64,000 nt of DNA from Escherichia phage PA27: sequence record KP682380.1, one strand, 5' to 3'. Below are positions 12,001-15,000 of this stretch, piece by piece. Within the stretch, counting starts at the first letter, position 1. The number at the start of each line of letters is the position of its first letter. The position numbers are program-made.

Positions 12001-15000
12001 AGCTATTCACTATTGGAAATCTTAAGAAATGGAACAAACAAGTTACAGCAAACTATCACAGCGAGAAATTGATCGCGCTGAAACTGATTTACTCATCAAC
12101 CTGTCAACGCTTACCCAGCGCGGTCTGGCAAAGATGATTGGCTGTCATGAATCGAAGATAAGCAGAACGGACTGGAGATTTATTGCTTCGGTCTTGTGTG
12201 CTTTCGGAATGGCATCAGACATCAGTCCGATTAGCAGGGCTTTTAAGTATGCGCTTGATGAAATCACAAAGAAAAAATCCCCGGCCGCCACCGAGGATTT
12301 TAAGCAAATTGATATGCAATTCTGAGGGAATTACTGGATCAATCCACAGGAGTAATTATGACAAAACAACTCAGTCCTTACCAGGACAAAATTCACAAAC
12401 ACATACTACGTGATCGCTTCCTGTCCAGCTTCAAGCAGCCTGGTCGATTCCGGGCTGAGTTGGAAAAAGTGAAGCTGATGCAGAAGGAGAAAGGTCATGA
12501 GTAACATATCTAATCTAGCCGAAGCCAGAGAGGCAAGAAGGCTACAACAACCGCATCAAAGCAGCGGTAAGGGGTATGCCTTGCTGCACCGTAAAATTAT
12601 GGATGTGCCGTTTTACAAGGACGCAGAAGCTGCGCATCTGTGGGTTCACTTAATCCTCAAAGCAAAGCATACGCCTGAGTATGTAATGACTGACGCAGGA
12701 GAAATTCTGGTAGGCAGAGGGAAGCTACTTGGCGGTAGAAACTCTCTGGCGTTTGAAACAGGACTCAAACCAGATCGCGTTCAGTACCTGCTTAGAAAGT
12801 TCAAAAAACTCGGCATGATTGACTGGGTTTCACACGGTAAATTCTCAGTTTTCTCGGTAGAGAAATATGACGATTATCAGTCAAATTTTGTACCAGCAGA
12901 TTACCAGCAAATTACCACCTCAAAGCCAGCAATACCAATGCCTGCAAGCAATACTGTACCAGCAGATTACCAGCAAATTACCACAGATAAAGAATATAAT
13001 AATATTATCTCTAATACTGACGTATTAGAGAGTGCCACAGCAGACAAAAAGTCTGACAAGAAAAAACCTTCCGTTAGCTGTCAGGATGTTGTCGATGCTT
13101 ACCACGAAATCCTTCCTGAAGCGCCAAAAATCCGCGCACTGAATGACAAGCGTAAAAACCAGATCCGAACGTTCTGGCGCAAAGCCGGAGTGATAACCCG
13201 CCAGCTTGACGGGCATGGGTTCACGATGCAGGACTGGAGAAATTATTTGAGCTACGTAGGCGAAAATTGCCGATGGATGTTCGAAGAGCGCCCAAACCAT
13301 CAGCGCGGAACCGTCTGGCACAAAAAGGGATTTGATTTCCTGCTTAACGATAATACCTACCTGAAAGTTCGTGAGGGTGAACACGATGACCGATAATTTT
13401 TATGCGCCGCCCCATAGCATCGAGGCAGAGCAGGCGGTGATTGGTGGATTGCTTCTGGATGATGACAGCAGTGAGCGCGTCCAGAAAGTTCTGGCGATGC
13501 TGAAGCCTGATTCATTTTACAGCCGACCACACAAAATCATTTTCGAAGAAATAACCAGAATGCACCGGGAGCAAAAGCCAGTAGATGGCCTGACGCTTTT
13601 CGATGAACTGGAGCGTAAATCGTTAACGGCGTCTGTTGGCGGTTTTGCTTATATCGCTGAGATCGCAAAGAACACGCCAAGCGCAGCAAACATCGTTGCC
13701 TATGCAATGCAGGTTCGTGAAACCGCAATGGAACGCTACGCCATCAACCGCATGACTGAAGCGACGGAATTGCTCTATTCCCGCAACGGAATGACTGCAA
13801 CGCAGAAGTACGAAGCTATTCAGGCGATTTTCACGCAACTGACAGACCATGCAAAAACCGGATCGCGTCGCGGCCTTCGCTCATTTGGCGAGGTCATGGA
13901 AGACTGGGTTAGCGACCTTGAGAAGCGATTTGACCCGTCAGGCGAACAACGAGGAATGAGCACAGGGATCCCATCGCTGGACAGGATGCTGTCACCGAAA
14001 GGTCTGGTGAAAGGCTCTCTGTTTGTCATTGGCGCTCGCCCTAAGATGGGGAAAACGACGCTATACAGCCAGATGGCAATCAATTGCGCAGTGCATGAGA
14101 AAAAGCCCGCTCTGATGTTCAGCCTTGAAATGCCAGGTGATCAGATACTGGAAAAACTGGTAGGACAGAAGTCAGGTGTTAACCCGAATATTTTTTACCT
14201 TCCGGCGACAAATGACGCCGATGACGGCTATCAGGGTGATTACGATGGTGACTTCAACAGGGCGATCGAAACAGCTAATCGCTTGAGTGAAATCGACCTG
14301 CTTTACATCGACGACACGCCGGGATTATCTCTGGCTCAAATCGTCAGCGAAAGCCGTCGAATCAAACGAGAAAAAGGATGCGTTGGCATGATTCTGGTCG
14401 ATTACCTGACACTAATGACCGCTGAGAAGGCCGATCGCAACGACCTTGCTTACGGCATGATCACCAAAGGACTGAAGAACCTTGCCAAAGAGCTTGATTG
14501 CGTTGTTGTGCTTCTGACGCAGCTTAACCGCGCACTGGAAAGCCGAACCAATAAACGCCCACTACCAAGTGACTCACGAGATACAGGGCAGATTGAACAG
14601 GATTGCGATTATTGGGTGGGGATCCATCGTGAAGGTGCTTTTGATGACAGTGTTCCACCTGGTGAAACCGAACTAATCCTTCGTCTCAATCGTCATGGCA
14701 ATACCGGCACGGTGTATTGCATTCAGGCAAATGGCGCTATTTATGACACAGACCAACAGTCTGCTGAAATGCGCCGACGTGAACGCGAGGAACCGCAGTC
14801 CAAGAAGAAAGGAGGATTCTGATGAATAAAAAACAATTAGCCATTCTCGAAAAGGCATGGGATGCACAAATATCATACGCTTTGAAAGAACAGGCACTAC
14901 CAATAATCCAGACCAAATCGAAAATAGCCAGGCAGTTATGCGATGGCGGATTCCTGAACGAAATTGAGATTACGCGCCAGATGGTAACGTTTAAAGGGTA

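Follow-up and report, generated by a model that had tools for sequence, protein, structure and literature searches.

Positions 12889-13031 of a 64,000-nucleotide (nt) stretch of Escherichia phage PA27 (KP682380.1; the whole stretch is referred to below as the window) are, as judged from sequence comparison, very probably the replication origin of the phage. The element lies inside the gene of an O-like replication initiator (12497-13396, + strand), in the part that codes for the predicted disordered linker of the protein. It comprises two triplets of 11-base pair (bp) repeats, an A+T-rich tract and a palindrome, which together occupy codons 132-179 of 299, between the codons of both folded domains. 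An earlier note on this DNA had proposed a candidate origin inside O, and the comparison supported the proposal with six phased units, frozen synonymous sites and a shared architecture. Beyond its anatomy, the element showed selection at the DNA level, an architecture conserved among homologues with lineage-specific iterons, and a linkage between the iterons and the N-terminal domain of the initiator. The origin was already known as an annotation or prediction (AP000422.1, PMC8022706); the analysis refines a known kind of element.

Anatomy of the candidate origin

An exact direct repeat of 30 nt, TGTACCAGCAGATTACCAGCAAATTACCAC, was found at 12889-12918 and 12955-12984 by a repeat search and by a separate scan. 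The 29-bp repeat that the earlier note had placed at 12890 and 12956 lies inside it, and the repeat stretches to 35 nt at 94% identity when taken from 12884 and 12950. Tandem Repeats Finder reported period-11 arrays at 12891-12917 and 12957-12988. This agreed with the earlier description of the copies as built of 11-bp ACCAGCARATT sub-repeats, which had to be amended in one respect: each copy contains three units, the third being a variant. The array consists of six 11-bp units with the consensus WTTACCAGCAR, arranged head to tail and without inverted symmetry, in two triplets whose starts are 66 bp (6 x 11) apart. Triplet 1 (12889-12921) is made up of TGTACCAGCAG (12889-12899), ATTACCAGCAA (12900-12910) and the variant ATTACCACCTC (12911-12921). 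Triplet 2 (12955-12987) repeats TGTACCAGCAG (12955-12965) and ATTACCAGCAA (12966-12976) and ends with the variant ATTACCACAGA (12977-12987). The spacer between the triplets (12922-12954) measures 33 bp (3 x 11) and is conserved in length and free in sequence. In the window, ACCAGCARATT had four exact matches, all within the array; with up to one mismatch, 11 matches were counted against 2.5 expected, a number reached by none of 100 shuffles.

The last unit of the array (12977-12987 and its homologous units) always deviated in the same way, with CCAC or CCAT in place of CCAGC or CCAAC (examples are ATTACCACAGA, GTGTCCACAGA and TTGTCCATAAA). A coding constraint might explain the deviation, or a special role of the unit nearest to the unwinding tract. 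In some lineages this unit (CCACAGA or CCATAAA) faintly resembles a DnaA box; here it fails the scan with one mismatch.

The second triplet is directly followed by an A+T-rich tract (12988-13007; TAAAGAATATAATAATATTA), a putative DNA unwinding element, and the zone of low stability continues to about 13016. By nearest-neighbour free energy, the zone at 12987-13016 is the least stable 20- and 30-bp duplex of the 64 kb, ranking first among approximately 64,000. The G+C content was 0.24 over the 50 nt following the second triplet (0.20-0.36 in homologues) and 0.28-0.30 over 12960-13039, which bears out the A+T-rich tract that had been noted after the repeats. Profiles of G+C and A+T skew were uninformative at the scale used.

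At the right edge of the element we found a perfect palindrome (13008-13031), which went unmentioned in the earlier note. It reads TCTCTAATAC-TGAC-GTATTAGAGA, with arms of 10 bp (13008-13017 and 13022-13031) and a 4-nt loop. A perfect stem of 9-10 bp with a 4-nt loop was present in all 80 of 80 distinct homologous genes, in 11 sequence variants. In an alignment of 15 sequences, 97.3% of the cells were paired and nine of the ten pairs had changed on both sides, with none changed on one side only. None of 500 shuffles reached this, and no slid register came close. The compensating changes alter the encoded residues (ISNTDVLES, ISSTDVEES, NSISKDIEC); therefore, it is the symmetry and not the peptide that is kept. 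When single-stranded, the DNA of this region has a folding energy of -8.6 kcal/mol (z-score -5.6).

A palindrome next to an A/T run might also be read, for this right-hand part of the element only, as a leftward intrinsic terminator or another RNA hairpin. The consensus scan indeed lists 13031-13008 as terminator-like on the minus strand, with the tail TAATATTATT, and the phage L record has software-predicted minus-strand terminators at the equivalent place. However, only three of the ten pairs of the stem are G-C, the tail is a mixture of A and T rather than a run of T, and no promoter-like site that could feed leftward transcription was detected by a consensus scan of both strands over 12300-13700. 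No Rfam family matched anywhere in 9000-16000. The 15 aligned variants contain neither one-sided changes nor G-T (G-U) intermediates, and the lack of such intermediates favours a DNA-level palindrome, or a DNA hairpin, over an RNA stem. Moreover, a palindrome of this kind stands at the corresponding place in the lambda origin. We therefore regard a terminator or RNA hairpin as very improbable, and a palindrome acting as part of an origin as the better explanation.

Constraint on the DNA and on the encoded linker

Both 30-nt copies encode the peptide VPADYQQITT (residues 132-141 and 154-163 of the 299-residue product), as the earlier note had read them. Such an in-frame repeat encoding a duplicated peptide could be a duplication within the protein linker and nothing else, with the VPADYQQITT module multiplied by slippage or unequal crossing-over and the DNA having no function of its own. 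The number of 66-bp modules ranges from one to four among natural variants, as would be expected for a slippage-prone coding repeat, and the region is predicted to be disordered, so the protein should tolerate such changes. In contrast, the basic repeat is 11 bp long. Since 11 is not a multiple of three, each unit in a triplet is translated in a frame of its own (PAD, YQQ and ITT), and the protein therefore has no internal repeat equivalent to the 11-bp unit.

The diversity at third codon positions was determined for 10 representatives that share the ACCAGCA unit, i.e., one iteron class, at 66-87% protein identity. It amounted to 0.326 in the N-terminal domain, 0.469 in the C-terminal domain and 0.333 in the rest of the linker. 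The units were nearly frozen (triplet 1: 0.073, triplet 2: 0.020), whereas the spacer in the same linker was free to vary (0.431). No diversity at all (0) was found in the A+T tract and in the palindrome. Among 267 placements, the two-triplet placement had the second lowest third-position diversity. The footprint of the constraint covered codons 132-179 (12890-13033), minus the spacer. Judged by these diversities, purifying selection acts at the DNA level on the iterons, the A+T tract and the palindrome.

This pattern is hard to reconcile with a duplication in the protein only, for which neither the frozen third positions of the units next to a free spacer nor the frozen synonymous sites of the adjoining tract and palindrome would be expected. 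The unit sequences also differ between lineages, whereas the 11-bp period and the 66-bp register are kept. Taken together, we find a mere linker duplication hardly credible, and favour an origin whose sequence is maintained as DNA.

Homologous elements and module copy number

The same architecture was seen in ten annotated homologues, namely those of HK022, phage L, Sf6, SW-70, two Klebsiella phages, Pantoea phage PA-1, Cronobacter phage ENT47670, Erwinia phage 59 and the window itself, and in 80 further IMG/VR loci. The annotated homologues come from phages of Escherichia, Salmonella, Shigella, Klebsiella, Pantoea, Cronobacter and Erwinia and share 35-99% protein identity. All homologues read had 3 + 3 units of 11 bp in a 66-bp register, followed by an A+T tract and then by a palindrome. 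The units themselves fell into five lineage-specific classes: TTACCAGCA, TTACCAACA, TGTCCAACG, TGTCCAGCC and GTGCCAACA.

The 66-bp module of triplet plus spacer varies in copy number among natural alleles, in steps of 22 amino acids. One copy was present in a gene of 831 bp (L052) and in a protein of 277 amino acids (P0238), two copies in the window, three in L049, L050 and P0002 (321 amino acids) and four in P0001 (343 amino acids). These alleles form a ready-made series for asking how many triplets the origin needs.

The array might alternatively bind a protein without being the site of initiation. It would then be an autoregulatory, copy-control (handcuffing) or exclusion site, recognised either by O or by some other factor of the phage or the host, and the true origin would lie elsewhere. 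In plasmids, iteron arrays also take part in control. Lambda replication is inhibited by ectopic ori-lambda iterons in combination with oop (PMC3349717), and what ties the array to initiation is comparative evidence. Against this stands the position of the array, which abuts the least stable duplex of the window and a conserved palindrome in the three-part layout of ori-lambda. No second cluster of the 11-bp unit was found elsewhere in the 64 kb, and the absence of DnaA-box-like sites (up to one mismatch) between 11298 and 14046 speaks against a nearby origin of the host-DnaA type. In addition, genetic work on phage L, cited in PMC8022706, places replication specificity in the gene pair of initiator and helicase. 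We consider a binding site of this sort, apart from the true origin, very improbable, and retain the reading of the array as the initiator-binding part of an origin.

Comparison with described origins

The window represents a Shiga toxin 2 (Stx2) phage; it is identical to VT2-Sakai/PA4, and its coordinates match those of phage PA4. The GenBank record of VT2-Sakai (AP000422.1) has the identical sequence and gives the same origin interpretation as the earlier note. Its features 'ori iteron 1' and 'ori iteron 2' (L001 2893-2922 and 2959-2988), with O protein as the bound moiety, map to 12889-12918 and 12955-12984 of the window. These iterons are an annotation by analogy and not an experimental result. 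That record counts each 30-mer as one iteron and marks neither the 11-bp units nor the A+T tract nor the palindrome.

For Salmonella phage L, six 11-bp repeats in gene 18 were described as the likely origin (Zaworski et al. 2020, PMC8022706). At the corresponding position, rep_origin features are entered in the records of phage L and Shigella phage Sf6, and HK620 has a similar one. Phage L resembles the window in having a homologous initiator (65-66% identity) followed by a DnaB-type helicase. The repeats occupy the same position in its gene and keep the 66-bp register, and the A+T tract and palindrome are likewise shared. Its unit differs (TGTCCAACG in phage L versus TTACCAGCA in the window), and so does the N-terminal domain, with VKS in the helix of L versus VQY in the helix of the window. 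Llarena et al. (PMC8044961) classed the replication module of the window as 'Eru3' and its initiator as Eru3A; their paper mentions neither iterons nor an origin of replication.

The earlier note had drawn a parallel to the lambda ori iterons inside O. With regard to position and layout the parallel is good: ori-lambda, too, is found midway through its initiator gene, where the linker between the domains is encoded, and its initiator-binding repeats are followed by an A+T-rich tract and a palindrome with a 4-nt loop, in the same order as the elements of the window. The lambda palindrome (L012 763-790), to the right of the tract, is an inverted repeat of 12 nt around a 4-nt loop. The modular logic is likewise shared: the iterons are matched to the N-terminal domain, and the partner protein to the C-terminal domain. 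The parallel did not extend to the type of iteron or to detectable homology of the O proteins. Lambda has four 18-bp iterons with dyad symmetry, whereas the window has six 11-bp head-to-tail units without it. Lambda O belongs to Pfam family PF04492 and works with a P-type loader of the host DnaB; in contrast, the initiator of the window has no PF04492 match and its partner is itself a DnaB-type helicase. Among Shiga toxin phages, 933W and P27 also have an origin inside O and six iterons, more than lambda, which indicates that the repeat number can vary; unlike the window, they encode a true lambda-type O with lambda-type iterons, and these have been studied biochemically (PMC7466680).

Plasmids with winged-helix Rep proteins, of the pPS10, F, R6K and P1 type, have head-to-tail direct repeats, bound by the Rep initiator, beside an A+T-rich unwinding element. 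Their iterons measure approximately 17-22 bp, are mostly located outside the rep gene and occur together with DnaA boxes. The window is similar in its head-to-tail repeats, its A+T tract and the predicted winged-helix-like fold of its initiator. It differs in that its 11-bp units lie inside the gene, without a DnaA-box-like site nearby and without a relationship of the initiator to Rep proteins. Searches of the initiator against plasmid Rep families yielded no match and no sequence relationship.

The initiator and its iterons

The initiator gene measures 900 bp and encodes an open reading frame (ORF) of 299 amino acids of the HK022 O / phage L gp18 type. By its sequence, the protein is a member of this family (phrog_345, 'replication initiation O-like'; E value 7e-88 over residues 2-299). 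It is 100% identical to O of VT2-Sakai, of Stx1/Stx2 converting phages of E. coli O157:H7 and of the PA series, 98.7% identical to HK022 O and 65-66% identical to phage L gp18. Homology to lambda O was considered and rejected: the initiator had no match to the Pfam N-terminal domain Phage_rep_O (PF04492), BLASTP against lambda O gave an E value of 4.7, i.e., no detectable similarity, and an hhalign comparison of a 43-sequence initiator profile with lambda O gave a probability of 0.1%. The label 'O' is thus owed to position and function and not to detectable sequence homology. A search of solved structures with the initiator sequence returned nothing meaningful, and NCBIfam had no match.

An AlphaFold2 model was built from a 43-sequence alignment of database proteins. 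It predicted a winged helix for the N-terminal domain (residues 24-128; 12566-12880, + strand), with a predicted local distance difference test (pLDDT) score of 84-95, helices at residues 81-88 and 92-104 and a beta wing at 108-121. The helix of residues 92-104 (12770-12808, + strand) is the putative recognition helix. A linker predicted to be disordered (residues 131-191; 12887-13069, + strand; pLDDT 30-37) holds the whole origin and leads to a C-terminal domain modelled as helical and folded (residues 192-299). The best matches of Foldseek in the PDB were all winged-helix DNA binders (CAP, CadC/SmtB, CodY, TubR, MarR), which is consistent with the predicted fold without proving it.

The identity of the N-terminal domains averaged 0.94 within an iteron class and 0.56 between classes. 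C-terminal domains were up to 1.00 identical between classes and down to 0.24 identical within a class; for example, the C-terminal parts of the Sf6 and window proteins, beginning at the palindrome, do not differ in sequence. On these identities, the iteron class is coupled to the N-terminal domain and uncoupled from the C-terminal one. A natural chimera was found in Erwinia phage vB_EhrS_59 (L011 886-1836), in which the N-terminal domain and the 11-bp iterons, together with the A+T tract and the palindrome, are of the HK022/L type, whereas the C-terminal domain resembles that of lambda O (70% identity). The next gene in this phage encodes a lambda-P-like loader in place of the DnaB-type helicase.

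Mosaicism was also seen among bacterial genomes. At least 80% of 12860-13060 was carried by 229 of 5,426 complete E. coli genomes. Approximately 145 further E. coli genome records matched only from 12987 rightwards, at 90-95% identity, which indicates a recurrent mosaic joint between the iterons and the A+T tract. The part to the left of this joint is specific to the initiator type, and the part to the right is shared.

Within the putative recognition helix, residues 96-97 varied together with the core of the iteron: VQY occurred with TTACCA, VKY with GTGCCA and VKS with TGTCCA. Among 240 database proteins, Y97 never stood beside a GTCCA-type peptide, and S or A at position 97 always occurred with the GTCCA type or, in one protein, with an isoleucine variant of it. 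These co-occurrences are suggestive of residues 96-97 tracking the iteron sequence. A one-to-one 'code' between helix residues and iteron bases was rejected, as the association is strong but not unique and comes from few lineages.

Proposed function and significance

By analogy with known origins, we infer how the initiator would bind the array, how the duplex would be unwound, how the helicase would be recruited and what part the palindrome would play. Rightward early transcription would yield the O-like initiator, whose winged-helix domain would bind the six 11-bp units head to tail, one helical turn apart. With the triplet starts six turns apart, the bound proteins would form a nucleoprotein complex resembling the O-some, and the strain of this complex would melt the adjoining A+T tract, the weakest duplex of the genome. 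The C-terminal domain of O would then bring in the phage's own DnaB-type helicase, encoded immediately downstream, and no loader of host DnaB of the lambda P type would take part. The palindrome may be a DNA-level origin element that is extruded, or folded when single-stranded, or it may serve as a mark for helicase loading.

A more far-reaching version of this scheme appears doubtful to us. The family might assemble an origin complex unlike that of lambda, in which winged-helix monomers sit head to tail on the 11-bp units, one for each helical turn, as two trimers exactly six turns apart, the palindrome, conserved throughout and freely co-varying, is needed as a hairpin or cruciform for loading the DnaB-type helicase without a loader, and residues 96-97 (QY, KY, KS) act as a re-programmable code for the first iteron bases (TTACCA, GTGCCA, TGTCCA).

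Several observations weigh against the main reading, an origin that works in analogy to ori-lambda. In the searchable literature, no experiment on an HK022-, L- or Sakai-type origin was found. As the initiator has no detectable relation to lambda O, the mechanistic analogy has no homology of the DNA-binding domain behind it. The alleles with a single triplet (L052, P0238) imply that six units are not obligatory, unless these alleles are defective, as they may be. Winged-helix proteins were matched weakly by Foldseek, the best hit having an E value of 1.3e-2 and none reaching 1e-3 or lower. Lastly, the link between helix and iteron comes from approximately five lineages and is confounded by shared ancestry, and it is not one-to-one, as units of the C type and of the Y type both occur with 'KY' proteins.

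Once Stx prophages are induced, their replication drives the output of Shiga toxin. The origin and the initiator of Sakai-type Stx2a phages are, therefore, possible points of intervention. The biochemistry of Stx-phage origins has been confined to the lambda-type module of 933W and P27 (PMC7466680), and the module of the window, present in the 229 E. coli genomes mentioned above, has so far been annotated by analogy only. Some of the details reported here have perhaps not been written down before, namely the strictly kept 66-bp register and the free sequence of the spacer, the weakest duplex of the genome, the co-varying palindrome, the alleles with one to four triplets and the candidate specificity residues. 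The refined anatomy does not amount to a new kind of system; it supplies concrete constructs for a first experimental test.

Neighbouring genes

The gene of the DnaB-type replicative helicase ('P'; 13386-14822, + strand) matched Pfam DnaB_C (3e-60) and DnaB (6e-32). Its start at 13386 is taken from the AP000422.1 annotation; the mechanically called ORF begins at a GTG at 13371. The C-terminal domain of O presumably recruits this helicase as its partner. Opposite the C-terminal half of O, an antisense ORF of 119 amino acids (13025-13384, - strand) is listed as a hypothetical protein (ORF b66) in some public records (AP005153.1). It found no support in this analysis and is probably a spurious call.

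Upstream of the initiator gene, the window encodes a CI-like repressor, cro, cII and a small conserved ORF, orf48. The stretch at 12333-12365 (+ strand) is an exact match to the 33-bp consensus of Hayes et al. A terminator-like hairpin lies on the minus strand at 12374-12387, just inside orf48, at a place without an Rfam family. The 48-residue ORF itself ('orf48' of P22/HK022; 12358-12504, + strand) overlaps the start of O by 8 nt and is conserved upstream of the initiator in phages of Escherichia, Salmonella, Klebsiella and Pantoea. In PHROGs, its family (phrog_1913) bears the label 'tail protein', which looks like a mis-annotation because orf48 sits in the replication module.

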